From assembly GCA_031401035.1 (NCBI GenBank), contig JANNRA010000032.1, positions 59,472-123,471 on the forward strand: 64,000 nucleotides of DNA, given 5' to 3'. Source of the DNA: a bacterium. Lineage in GTDB: Bacteria; Desulfobacterota; Binatia; HRBIN30; CADEER01. A program made the position numbers and the translations under genes. Below the pieces are notes generated by a model. That model saw nothing but the letters and a program-made list of their open reading frames with translations. It was not told the origin of the DNA and made no database searches. Positions 705 through 23,557 of this stretch are shown one piece after another (position 1 is the first letter of the stretch; each line of letters begins with the position of its first letter).

Positions 705-751
705 TCGCGCGCGGGTATGGCCTGGCGATCGCCATCGCCCTGCTGCTGGCG

Positions 752-1297
752 GTGCTGTTGCGCGGCATCGCCGTGCAGGCGTTCAAGATCCCCTCCGGAT
801 CGATGCTGCCGACGCTGCAGATCGGCGATCATCTGGTCATCAACCCGCTGCGCTATGGCGTGCGCTCGCCCCTGGGGCGCGGATGGTTGGTGCGCTGGGG
901 CGCGCCGCGCCCCGGCGACGTGATCGTGTTCTCCAATCCGCGCGAAAGTGGTCAAACGTTCGTCAAGCGGGTGGTCGCCGTCGGTGGCGAACGGGTCGAG
1001 ATTCGCGACAAGCAGGTGCTGGTCGACGGCGTCCCGCGCGCGCTCCCCGGCGCCACCTTCATCGAGGGGGTCGAGCGCGTGCAATCAAGCGGTCCGCGCG
1101 ATACCTTCGGTCCGGTAGCGATACCAGCGGGTCAGGTGTTCGTGCTAGGGGACAACCGTGATCAGAGCGTCGACAGCCGTCACTGGGGCTTCGTCGACGC
1201 CAACGATGTGAGCGGCAAAGCCGCCTTGGTCTACTGGTCGATGGATGCGGATGATGGGTGGGTACGATGGGAGCGGCTGGGGCAGTTCGTGCGCTGA
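752..1297 (+). CDS. lepB: Signal peptidase I
   Basis: The N-terminal hydrophobic helix is followed by KIPSGSMLPTL (Ser box) and GDNRDQSVDSRHWGFV (box E). It lies immediately downstream of lepA. GTG is the first in-frame start; the true start may be a few codons upstream. Confidence 0.85.
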   Translation: MLLRGIAVQAFKIPSGSMLPTLQIGDHLVINPLRYGVRSPLGRGWLVRWGAPRPGDVIVFSNPRESGQTFVKRVVAVGGERVEIRDKQVLVDGVPRALPGATFIEGVERVQSSGPRDTFGPVAIPAGQVFVLGDNRDQSVDSRHWGFVDANDVSGKAALVYWSMDADDGWVRWERLGQFVR

Positions 1298-1343
1298 AGC
1301 GCGACTCCGGCGGTTGCCAGAATCACGGTAAACTACGGAGGCT

Positions 1344-3851: not shown

Positions 3852-3852
3852 G

Positions 3853-4290
3853 GTGGTCGACGAGGCCCGCCTGCAGAAGGATCTGCAGGACGCGATGCGC
3901 GCCCGCGACCGGGTGCGCCTCGATGTGTTGCGCGGTGTCATCACCGCGGTGAAACACACCAAGGTCGAGAAGCAGCTGTCCGATGTACCGGAGGCGGAGA
4001 TTCTCGCCGTGCTGCGCCGAGAGCTCAACAAGCGGGCGGAGATTGCCGACTTCGCCCGCAAAGCCGGGCGCGACGAGACGGTGGCGCAGGCCGCCGCCGA
4101 GCAGTCGATCATTGAAGCGTACCTGCCGGCGCAGATGGATGCCGCGGGTCTCGAGGCCGCCATTCGCGCCATCGCCGCCGAGCTCGGCAGCGCACAGATC
4201 GGCCCGGTGATGGCCGAACTGCGGGCTCGCCATGCCGGTCAGTTCGACGGCAAGCTGGCCAGCCAGCTGATCAAGCAGCTGCAGGGCTGA
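3853..4290 (+). CDS. yqeY: GatB/YqeY domain protein
   Basis: VVDEARLQKDLQDAMRARDRVRLDVLRGVITAVKH...AELRARHAGQFDGKLASQLIKQLQ matches the YqeY family (about 145 aa). The GTG start overlaps the stop of the upstream gene. Confidence 0.75.
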   Translation: MVDEARLQKDLQDAMRARDRVRLDVLRGVITAVKHTKVEKQLSDVPEAEILAVLRRELNKRAEIADFARKAGRDETVAQAAAEQSIIEAYLPAQMDAAGLEAAIRAIAAELGSAQIGPVMAELRARHAGQFDGKLASQLIKQLQG

Positions 4291-4326
4291 CGGAGGGGGC
4301 GGCTTCCGCCGCGCCGTCCGCCTTGG

Positions 4327-5493
4327 CTACGCCAGCGCGGCGCTGGCCGCCGCGACGCCCACCCCGGGTCGCACTGCGTACCCGCAGCTCGGCAACAACC
4401 GCTCGAGTGCGTGCAACACCAGCAGCACGTTGGCCACCGTGCTCGACTCGCCCATCAGACCGATCCGCCACACTTTCCCCTTCAGCGGACCGAGTCCCCC
4501 GCCTATCTCGAGCTGGAACTCCTCCAGCAATCCCTTCCGCAACGCCACATCATCGACCCCGGCCGGAATCGCGACGCTGTTGAGCATCCACAGCCGCCGC
4601 CCCTCCTGCGCCGCCAGTTCGAGCCCCAGTGCGGCGAGTCCGGCCGCCAGCCCCTGGTGATGTCGCTGGTGGCGCGCCCAGCGCGCCACCAAGCCCTCCT
4701 CGTGTACCAGGCGGAGCGCTTCGAGCAGCGCGTAGTTCATCGAGATGGGCGCGGTATGGTGGTAGACGCGTTCCTCGCCCCAGTACTTCTCGATCATCGT
4801 CAGGTCGAGGTACCAGCTCTGCACCTTGCTGCGGCGGGCGCGCAGCGCCGCGACGGCGCGCGGGCCGAAGGTGAGGGGCGCCAGCCCTGGCGGGCAGCTC
4901 AGGCATTTCTGCGTCCCGCTGTAGCAGGCGTCGATCAGCCACTCGTCGACGCGTACCGGGCAGCCGGCGAGCGAGGTGACGGTGTCGACGACGAATAGTG
5001 AGCCGGCCTCGCGGACGACGCGGCCGATCTCCTCGAGCGGCTGCCAGGCGCCGGTCGACGTTTCGGCGTGCACCACCGCTACCAGTTTCGCACCGGGGTG
5101 GTTGTGTAGCGCGGCGCGGATGGAGTCGGGCTCGATGACCCGGCCCCACGGCGCCTCGACGGCGACCGAACGCGCCCCGCAGCGCTCGACGATGTCAGTC
5201 ATGCGCGTGCCGAACACACCGTTGACGCCGACGATGGCCGTATCGCCCGGCTCCAGGAGGTTGACCAGGCACGCCTCCATGCCGGCCGAGCCAGTAGCGG
5301 AGATGGGAATGGTCAGCGTGTTGGCGGTCTGAAAGGTGGCGCGCAGCAGCGTCTTGGTCTCCTCCATCATGGCGACGAAGACCGGATCGAGATGACCGAT
5401 CAGGGGCGCCCCGAGGGCGGCCAGGACGCGGGGGTGAGCGGCGCTCGGGCCGGGGCCGAGCAGAACGCGGGGCGGCGGAGAGATCGTCGTCAT
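4327..5493 (-). CDS. Class V aminotransferase (alanine--glyoxylate / serine--pyruvate aminotransferase-like)
   Basis: MTTISPPPRVLLGPGPS... with the SGTQKCL PLP-lysine motif. It is about 389 aa and divergent from glcDEF. The start was placed at the internal Met that fits family N-termini; the longer ORF extension runs through the palindrome and is considered an artefact. Confidence 0.8.
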   Translation of the reverse strand: MTTISPPPRVLLGPGPSAAHPRVLAALGAPLIGHLDPVFVAMMEETKTLLRATFQTANTLTIPISATGSAGMEACLVNLLEPGDTAIVGVNGVFGTRMTDIVERCGARSVAVEAPWGRVIEPDSIRAALHNHPGAKLVAVVHAETSTGAWQPLEEIGRVVREAGSLFVVDTVTSLAGCPVRVDEWLIDACYSGTQKCLSCPPGLAPLTFGPRAVAALRARRSKVQSWYLDLTMIEKYWGEERVYHHTAPISMNYALLEALRLVHEEGLVARWARHQRHHQGLAAGLAALGLELAAQEGRRLWMLNSVAIPAGVDDVALRKGLLEEFQLEIGGGLGPLKGKVWRIGLMGESSTVANVLLVLHALERLLPSCGYAVRPGVGVAAASAALA

Positions 5494-5503
5494 GGCCAGG
5501 ACG

Positions 5504-5551
5504 GAAAACACAGATGGCGGCGGATGGCCATCCGCCGCCATCTGTGTTTTC
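5504..5551. promoter_or_regulatory. Perfect 48-bp palindrome (24+24 nt, no spacer), a putative operator or RNA hairpin, centred in a divergent intergenic region
   Basis: GAAAACACAGATGGCGGCGGATGG|CCATCCGCCGCCATCTGTGTTTTC read directly from the sequence. It starts 10 nt from the aminotransferase start at 5493 and ends 10 nt before the glcD ATG at 5562, so it is exactly centred in the 68-bp spacer. Confidence 0.5.
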
Positions 5552-5561
5552 TGCGACCCGT

Positions 5562-6989
5562 ATGCTCGCTGCACCGCTCGCCGCCGCGCTCGCCGACCTG
5601 GTCGGCGAGGAGGGGCTGATCACCCGCCCGGCAGACACGCGCGTCTATGAGTGCGACGGCTGGACGCTCGAACGGCGGGCGCCTGACGCGGTGGTGCTGC
5701 CGCGCACGGCGGCTGAGGTGGCGGCGGTGCTGCGGCTGCTGCATGCGCGCGGCATCGCCTTCGTGCCGCGGGGCGCCGGTACCGGGCTGTCCGGGGGAGC
5801 GCTGCCGCTCGACGCGTCGGTGATGATCTGCACCAGCCGCCTGAAGCGCATCGTCGACATCGACCTGGCCAATTGCCGCGCCGTGGTGGAGGCGGGGGTC
5901 GTGAACCTGGCCGTGACGCGCGCCGTGGCGGCGCAGGGGCTCTTCTACGCGCCAGACCCGTCCAGCCAATCGGCCTGCACCATCGGCGGCAACATCGCCG
6001 AGAACTCCGGCGGGCCGCACACGCTGAAGTACGGCGTCACGACGAACCATGTCCTCGGGCTCGAACTGGTGCTGCCGGATGGCGAGGTCGTGGAGCTCGG
6101 TGGAGCGGCGGAAGACGTGCCGGGCTACGATCTGCGCGGCCTCGTCATCGGCGCCGAGGGGACGATGGGGGTTGTGACCCGGGCGACGCTGCGCCTGACG
6201 CCGGTCCCGGAGGGTGTACGGACGCTGTTGGCGGTATTCGAGTCGGTCGACGACGCCTGCACCGCGGTGTCGGGCATCATCGCCGCGGGGATCGTGCCGG
6301 CGGCCCTGGAGATGATGGATCAGCTCATCGTCCAGGCCGTCGAGGCCGCCTTCCACGTCGGCTTTCCGGTCGACGCCGGCGCCGTGCTGTTGGTCGAGCT
6401 CGACGGCGCGACGGCCGAACTCGACGAACAGGCGATCGCGGTGGAGACGATCTGCCGGGCGCATGCCGCGCGCGAGGTGCGCCTCGCCGCCGACGCCGCC
6501 GAGCGCGCCGCCCTGTGGAAGAGCCGCAAGCGCGCCTTTGGGGCCGTCGGCCGCCTGGCGCCGAACTACTGCACGCAGGATGGCGTCGTGCCGCGCACGA
6601 AGGTGCCCGACATCCTGCGCGCCATCAGCGCGATCGCCACCAGGCACGGCCTGCGTATCGCCAATGTCTTCCACGCCGGCGACGGGAACATCCATCCGAT
6701 TCTGCTCTATGACGAGCGCGACGCGGACGAGGTGCGGCGCGTCATTGCCGCCGGCCACGAGATCTTGCGCGCCTGCGTCGATCTCGGCGGCAGCATCACC
6801 GGCGAGCACGGCATCGGCGTCGAGAAGATTCAGGAGCTGTCGCTGCTCTTCGGTCCCGCCGATCTGTTGGTGATGCAGCAACTGCGCGGCGCCTTCGATC
6901 CGCTCGGACGCAGCAACCCGGGCAAGATCTTCCCGACCCCGGGGACGTGCGTCGAGGTGTCGCGACCGCACCGCCAGGTGGCGCTGTGA
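5562..6989 (+). CDS. glcD: Glycolate oxidase FAD-linked subunit GlcD (FAD-binding oxidase, PCMH-type)
   Basis: It has the VVLPRTAAEVAAVLRLLHARGIAFVPRGAGTGLSGGA FAD-binding signature, is 475 aa, and is first in the glcDEF order. Confidence 0.85.
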   Translation: MLAAPLAAALADLVGEEGLITRPADTRVYECDGWTLERRAPDAVVLPRTAAEVAAVLRLLHARGIAFVPRGAGTGLSGGALPLDASVMICTSRLKRIVDIDLANCRAVVEAGVVNLAVTRAVAAQGLFYAPDPSSQSACTIGGNIAENSGGPHTLKYGVTTNHVLGLELVLPDGEVVELGGAAEDVPGYDLRGLVIGAEGTMGVVTRATLRLTPVPEGVRTLLAVFESVDDACTAVSGIIAAGIVPAALEMMDQLIVQAVEAAFHVGFPVDAGAVLLVELDGATAELDEQAIAVETICRAHAAREVRLAADAAERAALWKSRKRAFGAVGRLAPNYCTQDGVVPRTKVPDILRAISAIATRHGLRIANVFHAGDGNIHPILLYDERDADEVRRVIAAGHEILRACVDLGGSITGEHGIGVEKIQELSLLFGPADLLVMQQLRGAFDPLGRSNPGKIFPTPGTCVEVSRPHRQVAL

Positions 6990-8314
6990 GCGACGGCGCC
7001 AGCGCGTCGGTCGAGGCGGCCTGGATCGGCGAGCTGCGCACCCGCCTCGGTGAGGACGTGGTGCGCGCGGGCGACATCGTCTGGCGCTTCGCCGCGGCCG
7101 GCCTGGCGCCTGCCTGCGTCGTCGAACCGGCCGATCTGGCCGGAGTGGTGGCGGCGGTGCAGGCCGCGGCGGCCCTCGACCTCGCCGTGGTGCCGGCCGG
7201 CAACGGGACGCATCTGCACGTCGGCGCCGCGCCGCGTCGCTACGATGTCGCACTCAGCACGCGCCGGCTGCAGCGCGTGCTGGCGCATGATGCCGGCGAT
7301 CTGACGGTGACGGTCGAGGCTGGGTTGACGCTGACAGGGCTCGACTCGGTACTCGGTGAGGCCGGGCAGTGGCTGCCCCTCGACGCTCCGCGGCCCGAGG
7401 CGATGACCGTCGGCGGCGCCGTCGCGGCCGATCGCAGCGGGCCGCTGCGCTTCGGCTACGGGACGCTGCGCGACCAGCTGCTCGGCGTCCGCGCCGTCAT
7501 GGCTGACGGGGCGCTGGTGCGCGGCGGCGGACAAGTGGTGAAGAACGTCGCTGGCTACGACCTGCCGAAGCTGTTCACGGGTTCGTATGGAACCCTGGCC
7601 GTGCTGGTCGAGGCCTCGTTCAAGGTGCAGCCACGCCCCGCCGGCTGGGCGGTGTTCGAGTGGACGGCGCCCGATCTCGCCGCCGCATTGGCGCGCGCCC
7701 AGCGCGTGCGCGGATCGGACGTGCAGCCGTTGATGCTCGAGGCACTCAACGACGCGGCGGCCGAGTCTCTCGGCCTCGACAGCGGCGCCAGCGTGATCCT
7801 CGCTTGTGCCGGCGGAGCCGGGCACCTCGACGAGCAGACGCGGCGCATCGCGCACCTGAGTGCCGGCGAGGCGACGCGGCATGTGCCGGAGCGGGCCGAC
7901 GCCCTCCTGCGGGCGCTGCGCGAGTTCTCGCAGCCGGCCGACGACGGCGCGCTGGTGGCGCGCCTGAGCGGTCTGCCGACGGTACTGCCGGAGCTGCTGG
8001 CGCAACTCGAGGCGGCGGCCGGCGCGGCCGGAGTGGTGGCGGAGATCGCCGCGCACGCCGGCAACGGCGTCGCCTGGTGCCAACTGCTCGGGGCGCAGGA
8101 TGCTGAGCTGGTCGCCGCGCTGGTCGAGGCGCTGCGCGCGGCGGCGCGGCGTGCCGACGCCTGGGTGGTGGTGGAAGCGATGCCAGCCGAGCTGCGCGGC
8201 CGACTCGACCCGTGGGGCTTCGACGGCCCGGCGCTACCTCTGATGCGGCGGGTGAAAGCGGCGTTGGACCCGCGCGACCGCTTCAGTCCCGGCCGCTTTG
8301 TCGGTGGCATCTGA
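6986..8314 (+). CDS. glcE: Glycolate oxidase FAD-binding subunit GlcE
   Basis: The GTG start overlaps the glcD stop (GTGA). It contains a FAD-binding PCMH domain, ...VVPAGNGTHLHVGAAP..., VKNVAGYDLPKLFTGSYGTLAVLVEASFKV. Confidence 0.75.
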   Translation: MSDGASASVEAAWIGELRTRLGEDVVRAGDIVWRFAAAGLAPACVVEPADLAGVVAAVQAAAALDLAVVPAGNGTHLHVGAAPRRYDVALSTRRLQRVLAHDAGDLTVTVEAGLTLTGLDSVLGEAGQWLPLDAPRPEAMTVGGAVAADRSGPLRFGYGTLRDQLLGVRAVMADGALVRGGGQVVKNVAGYDLPKLFTGSYGTLAVLVEASFKVQPRPAGWAVFEWTAPDLAAALARAQRVRGSDVQPLMLEALNDAAAESLGLDSGASVILACAGGAGHLDEQTRRIAHLSAGEATRHVPERADALLRALREFSQPADDGALVARLSGLPTVLPELLAQLEAAAGAAGVVAEIAAHAGNGVAWCQLLGAQDAELVAALVEALRAAARRADAWVVVEAMPAELRGRLDPWGFDGPALPLMRRVKAALDPRDRFSPGRFVGGI

Positions 8315-8315
8315 C

Positions 8316-9587
8316 ATGGCTGGGGAACTACGCGATGCGCGACCGGCGACATTGAACGCGCCACGGCCCAGCGGCCGGGTGGCCGATGCCGCGCTCCTGC
8401 GTGCGTGCGTCCACTGCGGCCTGTGCCTGGAGGCCTGCCCGACCTACCTCGAGCTGGGGACCGAGGCGGACTCGCCGCGTGGCCGCATTCATCTCATTCG
8501 CGCCCTCGAGGACGGCACGCTCGGTCTCGATGCCGAGGTCGTGCGCCACATCGATCTGTGCCTCGGTTGCCGAGCCTGCGAGAGCGCTTGTCCCTCCGGC
8601 GTTCGATATGGAGAGATTATCGAAGAAGCGCGCGGCTACGTCGAAGAGCACGCCAGGCGTCCGTGGCCCGAGCGGCTGCGCCGGCAGGCCATCCTGGCGC
8701 TGTTCCCGTATGCGTGGCGGATGCGCGTCGCGCTCTGGTTTTCCGACCTGGCGCGCGTTATCGGCGTCTGGCCGCTGGTGACGCGCCTCGTCGCCGGGGC
8801 CGACCTCCTGCCGGCGGCGCGGCAGCGCATGCCGGACGGAGCCTTTCATCCGGCGCACGAGGGCGAGCGCCTGCGCGTCGGCCTGCTGACGGGCTGCGTG
8901 GCGGGGGAGCTGTTCGGGGAGGTGAACGCCGCGGCGGTGCGGGTGTTGAACCGCGCCGGCGCCGCCGTCGTCGTGCCGCCGGGGCAGGGATGCTGCGGCG
9001 CGCTGCATCTGCACGCCGGTGATCGGGAGTCGGCGCGCACTTTCGCCCGGCGCAATCTGGATGCCTTCCCGGACGAGGTCGACGCGGTCGTGGTGACAGC
9101 GGCCGGCTGCGGGGCGGCGATGAAGGAGTACGGGACCCTACTCGACGGCGAGCCGGGGTACGGCGAGCGGGCTCGCCGCTTCGCCGCCCGCGTCCGCGAC
9201 GTCACCGAGGTGCTCGACGCGGTCGGCGTTGCGCCCGGCACGCGACCGCGGCCGCTGCGGGTTGCCTACCACGACGCCTGCCACTTGGCGCATGCGCAGG
9301 GCGTCCGCGATCAGCCGCGGCGCCTCCTCGCCGGCGTCACAGGACTGGAACTGGTAGAACTCGGCGAGTCCGACGTATGCTGCGGCAGCGCTGGCAGCTA
9401 CAACCTGACGGAGCCGGAGATGGCGCGGCGCCTGCGCGAGCGCAAGATCGATCATATCCTCGCCAGCGGCGCCGAGTGTGTGGCGGCGGCCAATCCCGGT
9501 TGTGCGCTGCAGATTCGCGCCGGCCTGGCGGCGCGCGGCTCAACCGTGCGCGTCGTCCATCCGGTCGAGTTGCTCGACGAGTCGTAG
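8316..9587 (+). CDS. glcF: Glycolate oxidase iron-sulfur subunit GlcF
   Basis: Two 4Fe-4S ferredoxin motifs (CVHCGLCLEACPTY and CLGCRACESACPSG) are followed by CCG-domain cysteines (CCGALH, CCGSAG). The ATG lies 2 nt after the glcE stop. Confidence 0.8.
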   Translation: MAGELRDARPATLNAPRPSGRVADAALLRACVHCGLCLEACPTYLELGTEADSPRGRIHLIRALEDGTLGLDAEVVRHIDLCLGCRACESACPSGVRYGEIIEEARGYVEEHARRPWPERLRRQAILALFPYAWRMRVALWFSDLARVIGVWPLVTRLVAGADLLPAARQRMPDGAFHPAHEGERLRVGLLTGCVAGELFGEVNAAAVRVLNRAGAAVVVPPGQGCCGALHLHAGDRESARTFARRNLDAFPDEVDAVVVTAAGCGAAMKEYGTLLDGEPGYGERARRFAARVRDVTEVLDAVGVAPGTRPRPLRVAYHDACHLAHAQGVRDQPRRLLAGVTGLELVELGESDVCCGSAGSYNLTEPEMARRLRERKIDHILASGAECVAAANPGCALQIRAGLAARGSTVRVVHPVELLDES

Positions 9588-9589
9588 GG

Positions 9590-10600
9590 TCAGTCGCGCA
9601 GCAGGACGTCGGTGCCCAGTCGCAGCGTGCCGAGCCAGCGGCGTAGCAACGGCGAGCGCTGCACCACCCCGCGCAGCTTGACGATCGCCAGCCGCTCGAG
9701 GCGGTAGCGATCGAGAGCTTTCCGCGCCGGCGTCGCTCCGGCCGCGTCGGCGGCCTCGAGCGGCGCCCAGAGCCCCTCGAGCGGATGCTTCCAGGTGGCG
9801 AGGTCGGCGGGGTCTAGGCGGGCGATCATTGCCTGGCAGAGGCGTAGCCGCTCCGGCTGCGCGGCGATCTCGACCGCCCATTTGTCGACCGACACGGTGC
9901 TCGGGCGCGAGTGCTGCTTGACGCCGATGGGATCGCCGAGGCCGGCCGCGGCGGGTTCGTGCTGGCCGTACTCGACCGCCTGCGGTTCGTTCGGGACGCC
10001 GAGAAAGGTGAAGATCTCGCCCAACACGCGCTCCGGGTCGGCGACCATCTGCTCGTAGACGACGTGGTAGATCGGTACCGGCCGGGTGCGCAGGAATCGT
10101 GCGATCGCCGGCACGTAGCGCTCGAGCAGCGGGTTGTAGTCGTGCGCGGCGGGGTAGTCGCCGTTGAAGAACGACTCGGCGTAAGAGCTGAAGACGGCGA
10201 GTGGGTGGCGCGTCAGGACGACGTACCGCGCCTGCGGGTAGATTCTCGCCATGAAGTCGAGGATCAGGCCATTGGCTGGCGTCTTATCGAGTATCAGGCG
10301 CTTCTCGGGTCGGGTCGCCAGCATGCGGTGATACAGCGTGTCGCAGTAGGCGCGACACGCGTCGATGTAGTCCTGTTCGCCGCCGGGAAGGCCGGCGACA
10401 AACTGGCGTTGCGCCTCGGCGGCCAAGACGGCGTCGTACGGCGCCCTGTCGACCTTGGCGTAGTAACCCAGGTGCGCGAGCGGGGTCAGGAGGTGTGGCT
10501 CCGGGCGGCCCATGATCTGCGAGTGGGCGCCGATCATGCGCGCCAGCAGGGTGGACCCGGAGCGCGGCGGGCCGATGACGAAGAGCACCTTGTCGTCCAC
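9590..10600 (-). CDS. PAPS-dependent sulfotransferase family protein
   Basis: It has the 5'-PSB motif VIGPPRSGSTLLARM and the 3'-PB motif LTRHPLAVFSSY. It is 336 aa from a GTG start; the longer ORF upstream is the antisense of the acyl-CoA synthetase and was rejected. Confidence 0.7.
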   Translation of the reverse strand: MDDKVLFVIGPPRSGSTLLARMIGAHSQIMGRPEPHLLTPLAHLGYYAKVDRAPYDAVLAAEAQRQFVAGLPGGEQDYIDACRAYCDTLYHRMLATRPEKRLILDKTPANGLILDFMARIYPQARYVVLTRHPLAVFSSYAESFFNGDYPAAHDYNPLLERYVPAIARFLRTRPVPIYHVVYEQMVADPERVLGEIFTFLGVPNEPQAVEYGQHEPAAAGLGDPIGVKQHSRPSTVSVDKWAVEIAAQPERLRLCQAMIARLDPADLATWKHPLEGLWAPLEAADAAGATPARKALDRYRLERLAIVKLRGVVQRSPLLRRWLGTLRLGTDVLLRD

Positions 10601-10650
10601 GATCGGCGGACTGTACCAGCGGCGGTGCCGGCAATCGAGCGCCGAGTGGG

Positions 10651-12171
10651 TCAGGCGAAGAGCAACGTCACCGCCGGCTTGCGGACCTTGCCCATCGGAT
10701 TGCGGGGCAGGTCGTCGACGATGCGCAAGAGGGTCGGGACCTTGTACGGGGCGAGGTGCTGTTTGGCCCAGGCGCGCAGCTCGTCGATGGCGAGCGTCGC
10801 TCCGGGTACCAGGATGGCGGCGACGCCGACGCGCTGACCCCACTCCTCGTCGGCGACGCCGACGACGGCGCACTCGGCGATGGCCGCATGAGTCCGCAGC
10901 ACCTCTTCGATCTCGAGCGCCGAGACCTTGAAGCCGCCGGTCTTGATAATGTCGATCGAAGCGCGGCCGAGAATGCGCAGACTTCCGTGCTCGCACACGG
11001 CGACGTCGCCGGTGCGGAACCACCCGTCGGCGGTGAATGCCTCTCGGGTCTCCGCGGGCCGGCGCCAGTATTCCTGGAACACCCCACGGCCGCGCACCTC
11101 GATCGCGCCAGGCGAGCCGTCGTCGACCGGTTGGCCGGCCTCGTCCACCAGCCGCACGTCGACGCCGGGGAATGGAACCCCCACATGCCCGGGTTGCCGC
11201 ACCCCGTGCAGTGGATTGCCGAGGCCCATGCCGATTTCCGTCATACCGTAGCGTTCGAGCAGGGTGTGCCCACTGATCTCGCGCCAGGCTTCCAGCAGCG
11301 CGACGGGTAGGGCGGCGGAGCCCGAGACCATCAGCCGCAGACGTCGCGCCCCACTGCTCAGCGCCACACGACGCGGCTCGGGCGCTGCCTCCCAAGCGCT
11401 GCGCAGCCGCGCGTAGATGGTCGGGACGGCCATGAACAGCGTCAGGCTGGGGTCGGCGGCGAGGCGCGTCCAGACGGCGTCGACGTCGAAGCCCTCCTGC
11501 AACTCGCAGACGGCGCCGGCCCACAGGGCGCAGCAGAGGACGTTGAGGATGCCGTGCAGGTGGTGCAGCGGCAGAACATGAAGGATGCGGTCGTCGGCGG
11601 ACCATTCCCACGCTTCGACCACCGAGGCGATCTGCGCCGCCAGCCCGGCGTGGGTCGTGACGACACCCTTGGGACGACTTGTGGTGCCGCTGGTGTACAG
11701 GATCATGGCGCGGCGCTCGCTGGCCCCCTCGGGCAGCGGCGCCGGCGCGCGCTCGAGCAGGTGCTCGATGCTGACGAAACGTCGACCCCGCTGGCGCGCC
11801 AGCGGGGCGATGCGAGCGGCGTAGCGGGCGTCGGCGACGATGATTGCGGCGTCGGAATCGTCGATGGCGTAGCCCAGCTCCGGCGCCGGATGTGTCGTGC
11901 AGAGCGGCACCGCGACGCCGCCGGCGCGCCAGATGCCCCACTGCGCGGTCACATGCGCGCAGCTCGGCCCGACCAGGAAGGCGACGCGTGCTTCTGACAG
12001 GTCCGCGACGCCGTCGAGCAGCCCTGCCGCGACCTGCGCGGAGGTCGCGAGCAGGCGCGCGTAGTCCCAGGTCCCGTCCGGCGCGATCAACGCCGGCCGT
12101 GCGGCGAAGCGGCCGGCGCGCTCGATGATATCCATGGGCGCTCGCGCGGTGTCAGTCCCGTCTCGGCTCAC
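10651..12171 (-). CDS. AMP-dependent synthetase/ligase (acyl-CoA synthetase family)
   Basis: AMP-binding motif ILYTSGTTSRPKGV, plus ...YGMTEIG..., GWFRTGD and the C-terminal PRNPMGKVRK. An alternative start is at Met13 (12135). Confidence 0.8.
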   Translation of the reverse strand: MSRDGTDTARAPMDIIERAGRFAARPALIAPDGTWDYARLLATSAQVAAGLLDGVADLSEARVAFLVGPSCAHVTAQWGIWRAGGVAVPLCTTHPAPELGYAIDDSDAAIIVADARYAARIAPLARQRGRRFVSIEHLLERAPAPLPEGASERRAMILYTSGTTSRPKGVVTTHAGLAAQIASVVEAWEWSADDRILHVLPLHHLHGILNVLCCALWAGAVCELQEGFDVDAVWTRLAADPSLTLFMAVPTIYARLRSAWEAAPEPRRVALSSGARRLRLMVSGSAALPVALLEAWREISGHTLLERYGMTEIGMGLGNPLHGVRQPGHVGVPFPGVDVRLVDEAGQPVDDGSPGAIEVRGRGVFQEYWRRPAETREAFTADGWFRTGDVAVCEHGSLRILGRASIDIIKTGGFKVSALEIEEVLRTHAAIAECAVVGVADEEWGQRVGVAAILVPGATLAIDELRAWAKQHLAPYKVPTLLRIVDDLPRNPMGKVRKPAVTLLFA

Positions 12172-13172
12172 GGCGCGAAGGCCGACAGGATCCGCTCATT
12201 GTTCTCCCGCACGCGTTCGCTGGGCACGCCCACCGAGGGCGCGTAGAAGAGCACTTCGTCGCAGAGGCCCTCCCACTGGCGCAGCCGATCGCGCGCCTCG
12301 TCGGGCGTGCAGGCGATGGCGATCTCATCGACCATCGCGTCGGGAATAGCCGCCGCCATCGCCGCGACGTCGAAGGATGCCAGGGCCGCTCGACACGCGT
12401 CGGCGACCTGCGGCAAGCCATGCAGGCGCAGGATCGTGTGGTAAACCTTCACCGTGTAGTAGAAGCCGATCTGCTGCTTGGCATCCTGTAGCGCCACGGC
12501 GCGATCAGAGTTGATCGAGGTCAGCACGTAGGGCACCAGCCGGCAGGCGCCGGCCGGGCGGCCGGCGGCGGCCTCGGCGGTGCGCAGGGTGGGCAGCGTC
12601 ACCTCGCGGTGCCAGCGGCGCGTTGCAATCGGATGGCCGACGACGCCGTCGGCGACGGCGCCGGCACTGCGCAGCATCGGCTCGTTGACGGCCGCCACCC
12701 ACAGCGGCAGGTCCGGGCGCGCGCCGGGACGCATGTAGACGGGGATGGTGAGGTCCCAGAAACGGCCCTTGAAACGGAAGCCGAAGCCGGCGGCGGCGCG
12801 GAAGGCGGCGCGCAGCAGCTCGACGAGTTCCTTCATCCGGCCGGCCGGCTTCTCGAACGGCACGCCCCACCAGTCGACGTTCATGCGCCGTGTGCCGCTG
12901 CCGAGCCCGAGCACCATCCGCCCGCCGGACAGCTCATCGAGGTCCATCGCAGCCGTGGCGTGCACGAGCGGCGCGCGGGTGAAGGCGTTGGCGATGCCGG
13001 TGCCGATCTGGATGCGCGAGGTGGTGGCGGCGATGGCGCCGAGGACGGCGAAGGCGTGCTGGTTGAAGAACTCGACCGTCAGCACGGTGTCGAAGCCGGC
13101 TCGCTCGGCCTCTTGTGCCAGGGTCAGGTTGCCGCGTGCCGAGCCGGCGGTGAGGATCAGTCCGCGTCGCAT
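12168..13172 (-). CDS. Luciferase-like monooxygenase (LLM) class oxidoreductase, possibly F420-dependent
   Basis: The 334-aa product has LLM-family composition (...GRMVLGLGSG..., TIM-barrel length). Its stop overlaps the acyl-CoA synthetase start by 4 nt. F420 rather than FMN dependence is an inference from family and context. Confidence 0.7.
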   Translation of the reverse strand: MRRGLILTAGSARGNLTLAQEAERAGFDTVLTVEFFNQHAFAVLGAIAATTSRIQIGTGIANAFTRAPLVHATAAMDLDELSGGRMVLGLGSGTRRMNVDWWGVPFEKPAGRMKELVELLRAAFRAAAGFGFRFKGRFWDLTIPVYMRPGARPDLPLWVAAVNEPMLRSAGAVADGVVGHPIATRRWHREVTLPTLRTAEAAAGRPAGACRLVPYVLTSINSDRAVALQDAKQQIGFYYTVKVYHTILRLHGLPQVADACRAALASFDVAAMAAAIPDAMVDEIAIACTPDEARDRLRQWEGLCDEVLFYAPSVGVPSERVRENNERILSAFAP

Positions 13173-13211
13173 CGTCCTCTCCTTCGAGCCCTGATCACAG
13201 AGCCCCGGATG

Positions 13212-13955
13212 CTAGCTCACCAGTCCCAGTCCGCCGTCGACGACGACGATCTCGCCGGTCATGTAGCGCGACTGGATGACGCCGAAGATCGTCTCGGCGA
13301 TGTCCTCGCCGGTCGCCGAGCGTCCGAGCGGGGCGTTCTGTGCGACGAGCGCGTGCAGCCCGGCCCAGTCCTGGGTCCACGGCGTCGCAACCAACCCCGG
13401 CGCCACGGCGTTGACGCGCACCGGGCCAGAGACCTTGGCGAGGAGCTGGGTGAGGTGGTTGATCGCGGCCTTCGAGACGGCGTACGGAATCGAACTGCCG
13501 GTCGGTCGCACGCCGGCGACCGACGTGACGTTGACGATGACGCCGGACGGACTTCGTTTCAGCGCCGGCATGGCGGCGCGGCAGAGGTACCAGGTCCCGA
13601 GCAGGTTGACGTCGAGAATGCGGCGGAAGACCTCGTCGGTGACGGCGTCGAGATCGGCATGCGGGATGAGCTGGGTCGTGCCGGCATTATTGACCAGGAT
13701 GTCGAGGCGGCCGAAGCGCGCCAGCGTCGTGCCAATCAGCGCCTGGCAGGCGGCCTCGTCGGCGACGCTGCCTTGTACGTAACAGGCGTTGGGGAGGGAG
13801 GTGGCGACGCGTTCGCCGGCCTCGACCGACGTCGAGGAGTTGATCACCAGCGCCGCGCCGGCGGCGGCGAGGCGCCGGGCGGTCGCCTCGCCGATGCCGC
13901 TGGAGGAGCCGGTGACGACGGCGACCTGGCCGGCGAGCGCGTCGGATGCCGTCAC
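13212..13955 (-). CDS. Short-chain dehydrogenase/reductase (SDR)
   Basis: VAVVTGSSSGIGEATARRLA (TGxxxGxG), NNAG, and the catalytic S...YAVSKAA motif. The GTG start overlaps the upstream stop (GTGA). Confidence 0.8.
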   Translation of the reverse strand: MTASDALAGQVAVVTGSSSGIGEATARRLAAAGAALVINSSTSVEAGERVATSLPNACYVQGSVADEAACQALIGTTLARFGRLDILVNNAGTTQLIPHADLDAVTDEVFRRILDVNLLGTWYLCRAAMPALKRSPSGVIVNVTSVAGVRPTGSSIPYAVSKAAINHLTQLLAKVSGPVRVNAVAPGLVATPWTQDWAGLHALVAQNAPLGRSATGEDIAETIFGVIQSRYMTGEIVVVDGGLGLVS

Positions 13956-15064
13956 TGGGCGGCGACCGGCTGGTCGTTGTTCGACGTCTTCTGCATGAAC
14001 TGCATGAGCAACTGGACGAGTTCCTGCGGCGGCGTCGTCTCGGGATCCTCGACCGAATCCTTGAGATGCTCGAACTGCAGCAGGTCGAGCTTGGCGTAGG
14101 CCTCGCGCACGCGCGGGGTGAGCAGGCCAAGGCGCTTCAGGTTGGGCACGATCTTCTGGAACATCATCTGCCGGAAGCCGCGCATGAACGGGGTCGTCTC
14201 CGACCACGCCGTCCACACCTTGGGATCCCAGCCGAGGTGTTCGAATACCGGCGTCGGGACGAGGCGCTCGCGCAGCAGGTGGGTGGCTTCGATGACGAAG
14301 TCCTCGCGCTCGCGCAGCTCCGTGGCGCTCATCTGGTTGGTGTACAGATCAGACAGCGACAGGACGCCGAAGGCGACGTGGCGGGACTCGTCCTGCATGA
14401 CGCGCGTGATGAGGTCCTGGATCAGCGGCTCGTCCATCATCTGCATGCGGGTGACGCCGAAGGCCGCCAGCGCCAGGCCCTCGACCATGATCTGCATGCC
14501 GAGGAAGGTGACGTCCCAGCGCGAGTCGCAGACGATGTCGTCGAGCAGCCGGTTCAGGCTCGGCACGCATTCGTACGAGAGGCCCAGCTTCTCGGTCAGG
14601 TAGCGATGGTAGACCTCGACGTGGCGCGCTTCATCCGCCACCTGGTTGGCGGCGTAAAACTTCGCCTCTTCCCACGGCACGCCCTGGACGATCTTCGCCG
14701 TCGCCACCAGCGCGCCCTGCTCGCCGTGCAGGAACTGCGACAACATGAAGGCGTTCATATTGAGCTGGAACTCGATGACCTGCTCGTCGCTCAGCGGCGT
14801 CGGCGGGTTGAGGAGCGAGTTCATCAGCGCCGGCATGCCGTTGGCCACGCGCTGCTTCACCATGCGTTCGATGTTGACGTCGATCGACCAGTCGAGGTCG
14901 TTGGCGTTCCACGTCTGGGTCTTACCCTTCTCGTAAAGGGCGAGCAGGTTCTGCTTCTCGAGCGCATACTTCCAATCGAAGACGGTATCGATGGTGGCGC
15001 GCACCGACTCGAAGGCCGGCCCGCCCTTCCGCAGCGGCAGGGGGTTGTGCTGGGTGTACTGCAT
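13952..15064 (-). CDS. Ferritin-like diiron-carboxylate oxygenase (AurF / acyl-ACP-desaturase-like)
   Basis: Two E...EXXH ligand pairs are present: ...HGEQGA...DEARHVEVYHRY and ...MVEGLA...QDESRHVAFG. The product is 370 aa. Confidence 0.65.
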   Translation of the reverse strand: MQYTQHNPLPLRKGGPAFESVRATIDTVFDWKYALEKQNLLALYEKGKTQTWNANDLDWSIDVNIERMVKQRVANGMPALMNSLLNPPTPLSDEQVIEFQLNMNAFMLSQFLHGEQGALVATAKIVQGVPWEEAKFYAANQVADEARHVEVYHRYLTEKLGLSYECVPSLNRLLDDIVCDSRWDVTFLGMQIMVEGLALAAFGVTRMQMMDEPLIQDLITRVMQDESRHVAFGVLSLSDLYTNQMSATELREREDFVIEATHLLRERLVPTPVFEHLGWDPKVWTAWSETTPFMRGFRQMMFQKIVPNLKRLGLLTPRVREAYAKLDLLQFEHLKDSVEDPETTPPQELVQLLMQFMQKTSNNDQPVAAQ

Positions 15065-15066
15065 CT

Positions 15067-15753
15067 TCAGGTCCTCCTCCGGTCGCGCGCCGCCGGACGG
15101 CGGCGCGGCTCGATGCCCACGTAGCGGAGCACCAGGGTGGTGATTTCGCGCTGCAACTCGTCGTCGCCGAGGGCGCGGCCGCCCGCATGCGTCTCCTCGA
15201 TCAGGACATGCTGCTGCATGATGGCGAAGGCCGTCTGGATCGCCAGGGCGATCGCCAGCGGCGGATCGGGATGGGTCATGTCCTCCCGCCGCGCCAGCAG
15301 CAGGGCGCTGAGGCGCTCCTCGACGCTGCGCCGGAAGCGCAGGCCGCCAGCGAGGATCACCGGATCTTCGAGGGCGCGGGCGAGGAAGGCGGCGATCATG
15401 TGGCGCCGCTCGCGCGTCGTCGTCACCAACTCGGCCACCGCCGCCTCGACGATCGCCGTCGTCGGCGCATCGGCCCAGCGCGTCGCGTCGGCCAGGCGTT
15501 CGACGCGCTCGGAGAGCTCGAGAAAGTGCTGCTCCTCGAGGGCGCGCAGGAGCTCGTTCTTGTCGCGGAAGCGGGCGTAGAAGCCGCCGACGGACGACCC
15601 GGCGCGCCGCGCGATTTCCGGGACTGACACTGCCCGGTGGCCCTTGGCGACGATCAGTTCCTCGGCGGCCGCGAGCAGTCGGCGCAGTGTCTGTTCGCTG
15701 CGCGCCTGCTTCGGCCCGCTGACGGTCTGGAGGTGAGCTACGAACGGCATCAA
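15067..15753 (-). CDS. TetR/AcrR family transcriptional regulator
   Basis: N-terminal HTH ...LLAAAEELIVAKGHRAVSVPEIARRAGSSVGGFYARFRDKNELL. It is first gene of the minus-strand cluster 15753->9590. Confidence 0.8.
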   Translation of the reverse strand: MMPFVAHLQTVSGPKQARSEQTLRRLLAAAEELIVAKGHRAVSVPEIARRAGSSVGGFYARFRDKNELLRALEEQHFLELSERVERLADATRWADAPTTAIVEAAVAELVTTTRERRHMIAAFLARALEDPVILAGGLRFRRSVEERLSALLLARREDMTHPDPPLAIALAIQTAFAIMQQHVLIEETHAGGRALGDDELQREITTLVLRYVGIEPRRRPAARDRRRT

Positions 15754-15851
15754 GAATCCGAATCCGATTCGCGTTCGTATCTGGGTCGACGGGGATTGTC
15801 CAGGTATTCCTCGCTACGCAGGTGCGTGTGGCGGCAAGCGCTCCCGGGACG

Positions 15852-15879
15852 CGGGGCGGCGCGGCTGGCCGCCGCCCCC
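15852..15879 (-). terminator. GC-rich stem-loop downstream of the acyl-CoA dehydrogenase stop (putative intrinsic terminator, no U-tract)
   Basis: CGGGGCGGCG-cggctggc-CGCCGCCCCG is a 10-bp perfect stem with an 8-nt loop. It sits about 20 nt downstream of the 15899 stop on the minus strand. Confidence 0.25.
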
Positions 15880-15898
15880 GGGCCCATCGCGCCTCCGC

Positions 15899-17116
<1,218 letters not shown>

Positions 17117-17222
17117 TCGGTTGGGAGACTAAAGCGGACGCCTCCGTGCGTGTCCATGACGGGGCCGGCGCCAAGCGCTGTTGACCGATCCGACGCGCAA
17201 CTGTACAGACCAGTACGTACGT

Positions 17223-17936
17223 ATGGCGCGAGGGAGATACCAGAAGAGCGATATCAGCCGCGAGCGGATCCTCGAGTCCGCTATCGAGCTGTTCTCAGCG
17301 CGGGGCTATGCGGCGGCCGGCGTGGACCGCGTTGCCGAGCGTTCAGGTATCGCCAAGACGGCTATCTACTACCACTTTGGCAATAAAGAGGGGTTACTCG
17401 TCGCGGTGCTGGAGCGTGCCGCGACGCATTGGATCGAGGGTATCGAGCAGGCTGCCAGGCAGGGCGGCGAGCCACTCGAGCGACTCGACCGCGCCCTCGT
17501 CGGCATGCGCGCCATGCTCGAGGAGCGGCCCTGGATCCTCAAACTCTTCCAACTCCTGGCGCTCGAAGTCGCCGACCACAAGCCGGAGGTGCGCGCGACG
17601 CTGCAGGGGATCATTGGCAAGGCGCGCGACGCCATCGTCAACGGCATGCGCGACGCGCTTGGCGTCGCCGTGCCGGGGGCGGAGACGGTCGCGGGTCTGC
17701 TCCTGGCTCTGCTCGACGGCGTGTCCCTCGGCGCCCATATTACGCCGACGCTGCTGCCCTACGACGACGCCTTCCGCGAGATCCGGCGTCTGGTCGCCTT
17801 CATGATTGCGACGCGACTCAACCCCGAGTTGGCGGCGCTGTTCGACAAGCCCCCCGATCTGGTGCGCCTGCTGCCGGACGGGCGGCCCCCTACAGGAGAT
17901 CTGGACGATGACCGCATTGGCCAGTCTGACCGGTGA
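17223..17936 (+). CDS. TetR family transcriptional regulator
   Basis: HTH ILESAIELFSARGYAAAGVDRVAERSGIAKTAIYYHFGNKEGLL. It is divergent from the acyl-CoA dehydrogenase. The start was chosen at Met15 of the ORF. Confidence 0.8.
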   Translation: MARGRYQKSDISRERILESAIELFSARGYAAAGVDRVAERSGIAKTAIYYHFGNKEGLLVAVLERAATHWIEGIEQAARQGGEPLERLDRALVGMRAMLEERPWILKLFQLLALEVADHKPEVRATLQGIIGKARDAIVNGMRDALGVAVPGAETVAGLLLALLDGVSLGAHITPTLLPYDDAFREIRRLVAFMIATRLNPELAALFDKPPDLVRLLPDGRPPTGDLDDDRIGQSDR

Positions 17937-18129
17937 GCTGCCGCAGGCAGAGCACGAGCGCGACGACGTCGACGAGGCGTACGGCCCGGGGTCGCTCGGT
18001 GCCGAACACCTCAAGCGGGCGCTGTTCAAACCGCGCCAGCTGTGCTGGGAACTCGGCGTGCTGACCGAGGGGTGGGCAGGGCTGTGGAAGCGGTTCGGTA
18101 TCTACGCGGCGAACGGGCCGCCGGTGTGA
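17908..18129 (+). CDS. Hypothetical small protein (73 aa), acidic N-terminus and Trp-rich C-terminus
   Basis: The ATG overlaps the end of the TetR gene. It has GC3-rich coding-like codon usage: MTALASLTGELPQAEHERDDVDEAYGPGSLGAEHLKRALFKPRQLCWELGVLTEGWAGLWKRFGIYAANGPPV. I recognised no family. Confidence 0.3.
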   Translation: MTALASLTGELPQAEHERDDVDEAYGPGSLGAEHLKRALFKPRQLCWELGVLTEGWAGLWKRFGIYAANGPPV

Positions 18130-22788: not shown

Positions 22789-22876
22789 CCCCAGCGCAGC
22801 GGCGCCACGCCCTCCACTGGCAGCGTCGGGCCAGGGCGGATAAGCACAGCCAACGCGACGATTTTCGGAGGACGAT

Positions 22877-23557
22877 ATGGGACGCATCGCAATACTCGGC
22901 GGTACAGGACCTGAGGGCATCGGGCTCGGGCTGCGCTTCGCCCTGGCGGGTGAGGAGGTGACGATCGGGTCGCGCCAGGCCGAACGGGCGCAGGAGGCTG
23001 CGCGCGACATGCAGGCGAAACTGGCCGCGGTGGGATGCCGCACCCCGGTGCACGGTGCCGACAACGCGGGCGCGATCGGCGGCGCCGACATTGTCACTGT
23101 CGCGTTTCCCTATGCCGGCGTCGCCGATCTGCTGCCTGCGCTGGCGGCGCAACTGGCGGGCAAGGTAGTGCTCGACGTCATCAATCCGCTCACCCGCATC
23201 AACAAGGTGTTCGGCTTGGCGCCGGTGGCACAGGGCTCCGCCGCCGAAGCGATTCAACAGTTATTGCCGGAGAGCTTCGTGGTGGCCGGCTTCAAGAACG
23301 AGAGCGCCGAGGAACTGGTCGAGATCGACCATCCGGTCGAGGGCGACGTGATCATCTGCGGCGATCATGGCGAGGCAAAGGGCCGTATCGTCGACCTGGT
23401 GCGGCGCATCCCCAACTACCGCGCCGTCGATGCCGGCGCGCTCCTCAACGCGCGCTTCACCGAGGGCATCACCGCCATGCTCCTGAACATCAACCGGCGC
23501 CACAAGGCCATCACCTCGGTGCGCATCCTCGGGCTCGACGGCGGCGGCGCGCACTAG
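22877..23557 (+). CDS. NADPH-dependent F420 reductase (Fno/NpdG family)
   Basis: MGRIAILGGTGPEGIGLGLRFALAGEEVTIGSRQAERAQEAA... is 226 aa and closely resembles the NpdG/Fno N-terminal Rossmann fold. A GGAGGA RBS lies 8 nt upstream. Confidence 0.75.
   Translation: MGRIAILGGTGPEGIGLGLRFALAGEEVTIGSRQAERAQEAARDMQAKLAAVGCRTPVHGADNAGAIGGADIVTVAFPYAGVADLLPALAAQLAGKVVLDVINPLTRINKVFGLAPVAQGSAAEAIQQLLPESFVVAGFKNESAEELVEIDHPVEGDVIICGDHGEAKGRIVDLVRRIPNYRAVDAGALLNARFTEGITAMLLNINRRHKAITSVRILGLDGGGAH

Follow-up and report, generated by a model that had tools for sequence, protein, structure and literature searches.

Six genes packed head to tail on one strand raise a plain question: do they belong to one pathway, or have they come to lie side by side for another reason? 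We addressed this question for a 64-kb window (the whole stretch of DNA analyzed here; 64,000 nt of contig JANNRA010000032.1) from the metagenome assembly of a Binatia (Binatota) bacterium, in which the minus strand at 9590-15753 carries six full-length open reading frames (ORFs). These encode a TetR regulator, a ferritin-like diiron protein, a short-chain dehydrogenase/reductase (SDR), a luciferase-like oxidoreductase (LLM; LLM1 for this gene), an acyl-CoA ligase with AMP-binding domains, and a sulfotransferase (ST) of the type that uses 3'-phosphoadenosine-5'-phosphosulfate (PAPS). The initial annotation had read all six as one TetR-controlled pathway, in which an acid is activated by the ligase, modified by the diiron protein, SDR, and LLM, and finally sulfated by the ST, yielding a sulfated lipid or metabolite. 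The six co-directional genes and the enzyme families that it named are essentially right (TetR, ferritin-like diiron, SDR, LLM, AMP-ligase, and PAPS-type ST domains are all present). However, comparison with related genomes points elsewhere: the array is probably a mosaic of three independent units (unit A, tetR-diiron-SDR; unit B, LLM1-ligase; and unit C, the ST) in a Binatia housekeeping region, fused by a lineage-specific 1.8-kb deletion.

Gene Order in Relatives and a 1,796-bp Deletion

The closest relative that we found is a JGI metagenome contig (L172; related loci are cited by such numbers), in which the ST is 92% identical to that of the window. There, the gene order is acyl-CoA dehydrogenase (ACAD), TetR, diiron, SDR, GntR, nitronate monooxygenase-like flavoenzyme (NMO), LLM1, ligase, ST, and glcF, with GntR, NMO, and glcF on the opposite strand. 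In blastn comparisons, the window is collinear with L172 positions 1-3603 (87.7% identity) and 5400-9598 (91.6%). In the window these blocks meet directly, at 13202/13201, and positions 3604-5399 of L172, a stretch of 1,796 bp, are absent. This segment holds a GC-rich hairpin 3' of the SDR, both opposite-strand genes (GntR and the FabK/NMO-like gene), and the distal portion of the spacer between NMO and LLM1.

The hairpin (L172 3595-3655; -52 kcal/mol, z = -5) lies directly after the SDR stop codon, between the convergent SDR and GntR genes, and is a candidate bidirectional terminator. It is GC-rich, lacks a T-run, and is absent from the window. The 39-nt spacer that now separates SDR from LLM1 has no significant structure (z = +0.7). 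About 10 nt of this spacer derive from the sequence after the SDR stop codon and about 29 nt from the proximal LLM upstream region, the latter part keeping a decayed palindrome copy and the ribosome-binding site AAGGAGAGG.

The GntR-NMO pair, in the same opposite orientation, separates SDR from LLM1 in all of L003, L006, L008, L012, L013, and L172, and the short contig L093 has SDR followed by an opposite-strand GntR, after which the contig ends. In the long-read metagenome-assembled genome (MAG) L013 (CAVWTK010000001.1, positions 1000-7200), the matches to TetR, diiron, GntR, NMO, and LLM1 are fragmented, which probably reflects frameshift errors rather than pseudogenes. Among the relatives examined, the contiguous six-gene array exists in this genome only. 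No contiguous set was found beyond the immediate lineage, and only the sub-blocks TetR-diiron(-SDR) and (LLM-)ligase-ST recur.

Junctions and Transcription Within the Array

The features are collected in Table 1. Domain calls compare Pfam and NCBIfam profile scores with curated or gathering cut-offs, and the junctions were read straight off the window sequence. TetR and the diiron gene are separated by 2 nt, with the ribosome-binding site GGAGGAGG. The diiron stop codon and the GTG start of SDR share a 4-nt GTGA overlap at 13952-13955, just as described before, and the spacer between SDR and LLM carries AAGGAGAGG as its ribosome-binding site. LLM and ligase overlap at 12168-12171 in a sequence that reads GTGA and had been given as ATGA; with ATG 12135 as the ligase start, the two genes would instead be 32 nt apart, and this start is favored by the N-termini of homologues and by the gene call in L172 (494 aa, 32 nt after the LLM1 stop codon). 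The gap between ligase and ST is exactly 50 nt, in agreement with the earlier estimate of about 50 nt. At most three of the five junctions are thus tight rather than the four that had been counted, the SDR/LLM junction being a 39-nt spacer.

A scan of 9300-17300 for consensus sigma-70 promoters and intrinsic terminators found none, and no structure was found in the ligase-ST spacer. Because a conserved promoter/operator precedes tetR, no terminator-like structure remains, and the post-SDR hairpin has been deleted, a TetR-headed transcript that runs through LLM and ligase, and possibly into ST, is plausible in this genome. The single TetR-headed operon of the initial annotation may therefore stand as a co-transcript here, but it is not conserved in relatives.

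Table 1. Features of the six-gene array and of its surroundings in the window.
Feature	Position	Strand	Basis and remarks
Promoter-like TGGACA and operator-like palindrome 5' of tetR	15754-15802	-	Cross-genome conservation
TetR regulator	15067-15753	-	TetR_N 52.9 bits (Pfam); start TTG 15753 or, more likely, ATG 15750
Ferritin-like (R2-like) diiron-carboxylate protein	13952-15064	-	DUF455 25.9 and AurF 20.7 bits, both below cut-off
SDR, classical	13212-13955	-	Pfam adh_short and adh_short_C2, 164-173 bits; GTG start
SDR/LLM1 spacer (deletion scar)	13173-13211	.	39 nt; junction between 13202 and 13201
LLM1, luciferase-like oxidoreductase, probably F420-dependent	12168-13172	-	Bac_luciferase 200 bits
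MatB-like acyl-CoA (dicarboxylate-type) ligase	10651-12171	-	AMP-binding and AMP-binding_C; start GTG 12171 or, more likely, ATG 12135
Extended -10-like element TGGTACAGT	10610-10618	-	9 nt 5' of ST start codon
ST, stand-alone PAPS-type sulfotransferase	9590-10600	-	Sulfotransfer_3 112 bits (Pfam)
glcF-like Fe-S subunit, last gene of glcDEF	8298-9587	+	Pfam CCG and Fer4
ACAD, acyl-CoA dehydrogenase	15899-17116	-	Pfam Acyl-CoA_dh_N/M/1; 5' of array, would be a seventh co-directional gene
TetR2, second TetR gene, divergent from ACAD	17181-17936	+	
npdG, NADPH-dependent F420 reductase	22844-23557	+	TIGR01915 192 bits, cut-off 150; about 7 kb from array

Unit A: A TetR-Partnered Diiron Protein

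Upstream of tetR, the sequence TGGACA at 15802-15797 is followed by the palindrome CGAACGCGAATCGGATTCGGATTC at 15777-15754, which ends directly before the start codon. The arrangement TGGACA...cATATAcGAATCCGAATCGGATTCTGATTC is kept in L003, L004, L006, L008, L012, and L013, and L001 and L002, with a TetR of only ~60% identity, still have the palindrome core GAATCCGATTC. Nine loci share, 5' of tetR, TGGACA, an A/T-rich -10-like stretch, and the palindrome GAATCCGAATCGGATTCTGATTC ending at the start codon. A TetR gene that adjoins its predicted target, with a conserved palindrome at the promoter, is the arrangement expected of a TetR-regulated operon, and we infer autoregulation from it. TetR would bind the ~23-bp palindrome overlapping its own promoter and would be released by a ligand, probably hydrophobic or acyl; the diiron protein would then carry out an O2-dependent oxidation, and the SDR would interconvert the resulting alcohol and ketone.

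The pairing of TetR with the diiron protein extends well beyond the close relatives. A metagenome scan with the diiron alignment gave 80 loci (44-83% identity), and a TetR-family gene lies directly 5' on the same strand in at least 31 of the 58 loci that have enough upstream flank. None of the 80 has an orthologue (at least 40% identity) of ST, ligase, or LLM1 nearby. The 4-nt diiron/SDR overlap is kept in L003-L006, L008, and L172, and an SDR gene follows the diiron gene in close relatives only. In L004 and L005 (diiron 88% identical), TetR-diiron-SDR has no LLM, ligase, or ST within 10 kb, and TetR-diiron stands alone in L002 (74%). L001 has TetR-diiron without SDR, and orthologues of NMO and LLM1 lie 3-5 kb downstream. 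In the group of diiron homologues at 44-48% identity (L121-L171), dapA-like and RNase-J-like metallo-beta-lactamase genes are found downstream in 9-11 loci each, and a TetR-family gene directly 5' in 13 loci.

The diiron protein has the ligand set E115, E145xxH148, E195, and E226xxH229, which is invariant in 29 homologues; the two ExxH motifs that had been noted before read DEARH and DESRH. This E...ExxH...E...ExxH pattern on a predicted helical fold places it in the ferritin-like diiron-carboxylate superfamily. The AlphaFold model (pLDDT 69) has ribonucleotide reductase (RNR) R2 and R2lox as its top Foldseek matches (E ~5e-4), and the best Protein Data Bank (PDB) sequence match is 5uxg, a 'hypothetic aldehyde deformylating oxygenase' (3.7e-6).

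The protein shares with R2lox and RNR R2 the four-helix-bundle diiron-carboxylate fold and the E/ExxH/E/ExxH ligands. Unlike R2lox, it has 370 aa, N- and C-terminal regions of its own, and a TetR partner, and it scores 20-37 bits against R2lox models with cut-offs of 194-315 (at most 36.6 bits against at least 194 for NF006199-202). With the N-oxygenases AurF and CmlI (PF11583), it shares the ferritin-like diiron character and a weak Pfam similarity over the C-terminal two thirds; however, its score of 20.7 falls below the cut-off of 29.6, and relatives carry a true AurF-family gene separately, beside TetR2. DUF455 (PF04305) also stays below its cut-off (25.9 vs. 34.3), and the acyl-ACP desaturase family PF03405 gave no Pfam match at E <= 0.01. 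These profiles do not confirm the earlier label of an AurF/desaturase-like enzyme. Judged by profile scores and ligand conservation, the protein belongs to an uncharacterized, highly conserved ferritin-like family.

Unit B: LLM1, Ligase, and a Lost GntR

The best NCBIfam match of LLM1 is TIGR03617 (199.4 bits, cut-off 278), and its ten top families are all of the F420 type. The best PDB match is the F420-dependent Mer (7e-30). F420 use by LLM1 is credible because the window contains a bona fide npdG, a gene that also indicates that this Binatia organism would use coenzyme F420. LLM1 is not Mer itself, since its scores for the Mer models (142 and 132 bits) stay well below the respective cut-offs (276 and 349). 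Some relatives carry a second, FMN-type LLM (LLM2) in unit B. We also considered whether LLM1 is a recombinant of these two paralogues and rejected the idea, since it is a full-length LLM1 orthologue (84-88% identity) that is ~27% identical to LLM2.

The ligase resembles MatB, its closest solved relatives being the malonyl-CoA synthetases 4fuq and 3nyq (1e-75 to 5e-71), with which it shares the full-length AMP-binding architecture. Oxalyl-CoA and feruloyl-CoA ligases follow, and then FadD13 (1e-46). Unlike MatB, it falls below the equivalog cut-offs of PRK07514 (354.9 vs. 558) and PRK07787. By its best PDB matches, it is malonyl-CoA synthetase-like and not a ligase of the long-chain fatty-acid type.

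In relatives, unit B would be a separate unit, divergent from GntR and the FabK/NMO-like flavoenzyme. The palindrome GAATCnCTGATCAGnGATTC is conserved in the NMO-LLM1 spacer of L003, L006 (~6200-6240), L008, L012, and L172. In the window, GntR is lost and a decayed remnant of this palindrome is left at 13176-13203. The GAATCnCTGATCAGnGATTC palindrome and the TetR operator share GAATC/GATTC half-sites, and cross-regulation is possible. With the hairpin, GntR, NMO, and the distal part of the LLM promoter region gone, transcription of unit B most likely comes here by read-through from the TetR promoter.

These features also bear on a second reading, in which units A and B (ACAD, TetR, diiron, SDR, GntR, NMO, LLMs, and ligase) form a single island, controlled by both TetR and GntR, for the catabolism of an organic or fatty acid-like substrate, and the ST is an unrelated neighbor. 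The two units adjoin in the window and in L003, L006, L008, L012, L013, and L172, and they are neighbors, rearranged, in L001 (diiron 76%, NMO 71%, and LLM1 69% identical). An ACAD, a CoA ligase, and oxidoreductases are typical of CoA-dependent catabolism, and the half-sites of the TetR operator recur in the NMO-LLM1 palindrome, although their spacing differs and the resemblance may be coincidence. On the other hand, L004 and L005 (diiron 88%) and L002 (74%) have unit A with no unit B within 10 kb, none of the 80 metagenomic loci has an LLM1 or NMO orthologue near the diiron gene, and the sequence does not allow a substrate to be named. We hold this reading to be possible, though doubtful.

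Unit C: A Stand-Alone Sulfotransferase

The ST profile scores are well above their cut-offs (Sulfotransfer_3, PF13469, 112.4 bits vs. 27; Sulfotransfer_1, 33.4 vs. 22). The 5'-phosphosulfate-binding (5'-PSB) motif PRSGST and the 3'-phosphate-binding (3'-PB) motif RHPLAVFSS named in the initial annotation are both present. Their residues P12-R13-S14-G15-S16-T17 and R131-H132-P133...S138-S139 are invariant in 16 homologues (69-92% identity), and both motifs align to those of the ST domains of CurM and of the olefin synthase OLS. E34 and H36, in the motif RPEPHLL, are invariant as well and correspond in alignment to the PELHLL motif of the CurM and OLS STs, which provides a candidate catalytic base. 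Glu serves as the base in the CurM ST and in the tyrosylprotein sulfotransferase (TPST) TPST2. The ST would thus move sulfate from PAPS to an acceptor by a Glu/His motif of the CurM-ST/TPST type.

The closest PDB matches are 4gox (OLS ST, 1.3e-16) and 4gbm (CurM ST, 4.5e-14), followed by TPSTs (~1e-5), and a Foldseek search with a model of pLDDT 77 gave the same ranking. By sequence and fold, the protein belongs to the branch of PAPS-type sulfotransferases that includes the CurM/OLS STs and the TPSTs. With CurM and OLS (4gbm, 4gox), its best matches in both searches, it shares the PRSGST 5'-PSB loop, the 3'-PB region, and a PE-HLL motif that aligns with PELHLL. Unlike them, it is a stand-alone protein of 336 aa with only 22-25% identity, does not lie between the acyl carrier protein (ACP) and the thioesterase of a polyketide synthase (PKS), and has a C-terminal extension of ~120 aa that is Arg-rich and invariant in the family. 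This extension (residues ~215-336, window 9590-9960) contains DRYRLER...RLGxDVLLRE and predicted helices at 298-335, and it is lacking in the CurM and OLS ST domains and in TPSTs.

TPST1/2 lie on the same fold branch, with Foldseek E-values equal to that of the CurM ST. They share with the window ST the Arg that takes the place of Lys in the 5'-PSB loop and the Glu-type catalytic motif. RaxST is a bacterial member of the tyrosylprotein sulfotransferases. TPSTs differ in that their sequence matches reach only E ~1e-5, and near the window ST there is no candidate peptide substrate or secretion gene.

The family is compact. A search of 1.84 billion representative proteins with the ST gave no more than 118 clusters at 1e-30, and more distant matches include ST domains inside proteins of 1,000-2,900 residues. 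Homologues down to ~49% identity are found in other MAGs variously labeled Myxococcota or Proteobacteria.

The mycobacterial sulfolipid and sulfomenaquinone systems (Stf0/Pks2/PapA/MmpL8 and Stf3/Cyp128) are a further known comparison. Like the array, they combine a PAPS-dependent ST with a neighborhood rich in lipid metabolism. Unlike them, the array has no PKS, acyltransferase, MmpL transporter, or P450, and its ST is a Sulfotransfer_3 protein of the CurM/TPST branch, with only a weak fold match to Mycobacterium tuberculosis Stf1 (2zq5; Foldseek E = 1.5e-4).

Genomic Contexts of the Sulfotransferase

A scan of species-representative genomes for the ST gave 80 loci (49-83% identity), in which neighbors were called by tblastn and de novo ORF clustering. 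A conserved framework runs CN-hydrolase (-), helicase (+), TetR2 (-), an insert, ST (+), and glcF (-), the ST being taken as the plus strand. The insert is a histidine kinase alone in six Binatia that lack the other five genes at this place (L015, L016, L027, L029, L032, and L037), and in the window's lineage it is the block from ACAD to ligase. The steadiest neighbor of ST is glcF, which adjoins it in L006, L012, L015, L029, L032, L035, L037, and L172, and was not detected beside ST in L016 and L027. In the window, glcF and ST converge, and their stop codons lie so close together (2 nt apart, 9587-9590) that a terminator has no room between them. L032 and L001 are parts of one 4.77-Mb contig, with ST at ~4.45 Mb and TetR-diiron at ~0.46 Mb (~4 Mb apart in contig coordinates).

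Outside this framework, three other contexts recur. In 24 loci with STs of 64-73% identity (L010, L011, L019-L026, L030, L031, L033, L034, L038-L043, L048, L050, L066, and L090), an alpha/beta hydrolase gene lies directly 5' of ST, at 14-158 nt. The hydrolase is a monoacylglycerol-lipase (MGL) homologue, matching M. tuberculosis MGL (6eic) at 1.8e-56 and the CurM thioesterase (3qit) at 7.8e-8. These loci share the block GlnE, Aminotran_4, rhomboid, hydrolase, ST, and LysR. The hydrolase context hints at a lipid-related acceptor, and it may be mere shared ancestry. In 15 loci with STs of 49-55% identity (L047, L049, L051, L053-L056, L058, L061, L064, L071, L072, L074, L080, and L083), murB lies ~80 nt 5' of ST. 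murB is a gene of peptidoglycan precursor synthesis, and the MAG labels of these loci are mixed, including Myxococcota, Proteobacteria, and Enterobacterales. In a second ST clade (50-55%), an AMP-ligase gene is found 5' of ST in L052, L059, and L081, and probably in L065, L069, and L079; in these roughly six loci, it is 31-34% identical to the window's ligase.

ST also appears to have a promoter-like element of its own. Of 83 ST loci, 17 have the motif TGnTAnnnT ending 3-12 nt 5' of the start codon, and nearly all of these 17 have STs at least 64% identical; random 40-nt windows from the same loci contain it at a rate of 0.17%. It is present with either ligase or hydrolase 5' of ST, where it ends 8-10 nt from the start codon, and the loci with a divergent histidine kinase have looser TGnTA variants only. 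In the window, no Shine-Dalgarno sequence precedes the ST start codon. The enrichment of the motif and the missing Shine-Dalgarno sequence together point to a putative ST-proximal promoter with a very short leader. Unit C would then be an ST with its own -10-like element and a fixed place by glcDEF, not functionally tied to units A and B.

One Pathway or Three Units

The mosaic has points against it that need to be weighed. The window was assembled from a metagenome, and the missing segment could in principle reflect a misassembly. Eight genomes of the window's lineage preserve the sequence of unit A, unit B, and ST. In the more distant L001, too, TetR-diiron lies near NMO and LLM1, and units A and B may be functionally related. 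An AMP-ligase directly 5' of ST in two clades is a possible, weak link between ligase and ST. Confidence in the diiron model is moderate (pLDDT 69), and the promoters, the operator, and the read-through are predictions from sequence, with a consensus scan that returned no sigma-70 sites. We nevertheless judge it likely that the array is the product of a lineage-specific ~1.8-kb deletion that joined unrelated units.

Several of the same observations speak for the single pathway of the initial annotation, namely co-directional genes with three tight junctions and no terminators found, an order kept in eight related genomes, intact PAPS-binding and catalytic motifs in the ST, and the ligase-ST adjacency that recurs in the second clade. 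Against it, the contiguity exists here only and arose by deletion, and relatives have the divergent GntR-NMO pair and a strong hairpin interposed. In six Binatia the ST holds its place although the other genes are missing there, and in the 4.77-Mb contig it is not linked to the diiron gene; its commonest upstream genes are a lipase-like hydrolase or murB. Orthologues of ST, ligase, or LLM (at least 40% identity) are missing from all 80 diiron loci, the ligase is malonyl-CoA-synthetase-like, and the 64-kb window lacks genes for PAPS supply, carrier proteins, PKS, or lipid export. A single activate-oxidize-reduce-sulfate pathway is thus not supported by comparative genomics, and we consider it unlikely. 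The initial annotation had itself proposed that the idea would fall if the genes were never co-localized in relatives. Co-localization was found in the immediate lineage only, where it is always interrupted, and ST and the diiron gene are separate elsewhere; by that standard, the synteny is largely accidental.

For the ST itself, two further roles can be considered. One is that of a conserved stand-alone relative of the 'activating' STs, acting on a thioester (e.g., a 3-hydroxyacyl-CoA from the ligase) or on a conserved envelope lipid, which seems improbable to us. The other follows the published role of the CurM/OLS STs (PMC3903477): the ST would sulfonate a beta-hydroxyacyl thioester from the ligase, and a hydrolase would then free a terminal alkene by decarboxylative elimination. 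OLS and CurM ST domains are the best solved-structure matches, ST domains in proteins of 1,000-2,900 aa are among the closest relatives beyond the family, an alpha/beta-hydrolase gene abuts ST in 24 loci and another lies 3' of ST in L008, and the ligase is 5' of ST in two clades. Yet the adjoining hydrolase is an MGL homologue that matches the CurM thioesterase at only 7.8e-8, the window has no such hydrolase beside ST and no ACP or PKS nearby, TPSTs match the fold equally well, and identity to the CurM/OLS STs is only 22-25%, so that this reaction is very improbable here. A free-standing CurM-like ST-thioesterase olefin module was rejected as the main model on the grounds of the MGL-like hydrolase and its absence beside ST in the window. 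Membership of the CurM/OLS type proper does not apply either, as the ST is stand-alone and no PKS or ACP was found in the window or in the related loci examined.

Chromosomal Surroundings

The 64-kb window (G+C ~70%) is an ordinary housekeeping region that extends from lepA to uvrB. Its genes include lepA, an FG-GAP protein gene, glcDEF, a DinG-like helicase gene, a CN-hydrolase gene, and those for agmatine deiminase, nadA, and pepA, as well as acyl-CoA dehydrogenases, uvrD, dapA, argH/D/B, xerC, mdh, and uvrB. No PAPS-supply genes, carrier proteins, PKS or non-ribosomal peptide synthetase genes, or lipid exporters were found in it. The top homologues of the diiron protein and the ST (74-92% identity), where named, are from Candidatus Binatia.

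Orthologues of the ACAD (78-90% identity) lie 5' of TetR in L003, L004, L006, L008, L012, L013, and L172. On the far side of the ACAD, a true AurF-family diiron gene (PF11583, 240 bits) follows TetR2 in relatives (L003 1379-3047; L004 6006-7671). In the window, only a C-terminal remnant of it is left at ~17707-18129, with 33% identity to residues 195-325 and no Pfam match, which suggests gene decay or a further local deletion. In the literature, the Binatota genome paper makes no mention of sulfotransferases, F420, or ferritin-like proteins, and searches on 5UXG, on R2lox with TetR, and on Sulfotransfer_3 returned nothing relevant.

Implications

Genome mining should take note that genes packed tightly on one strand in a single genome can owe this to a recent deletion and not to shared function. 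The proposed pathway to a sulfated lipid does not survive comparison with relatives, and the array is better described as an ordinary mosaic of known enzyme kinds and a clear case of operon fusion by deletion. It probably also represents a natural rewiring, in which an LLM-ligase unit that is GntR-associated in relatives now lies behind a TetR promoter.

The remaining interest lies in two conserved families without assigned function in an uncultured phylum. The first target is the TetR-partnered R2-like diiron protein, which has a well-defined predicted operator and occurs in several lineages. The second is the stand-alone CurM/TPST-like ST, which has a fixed chromosomal position in Binatia. 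If its improbable thioester role were true, this ST would let uncultured hydrocarbon-associated bacteria make sulfated or olefinic lipids without a PKS, and in this genome it would have come newly under TetR control.

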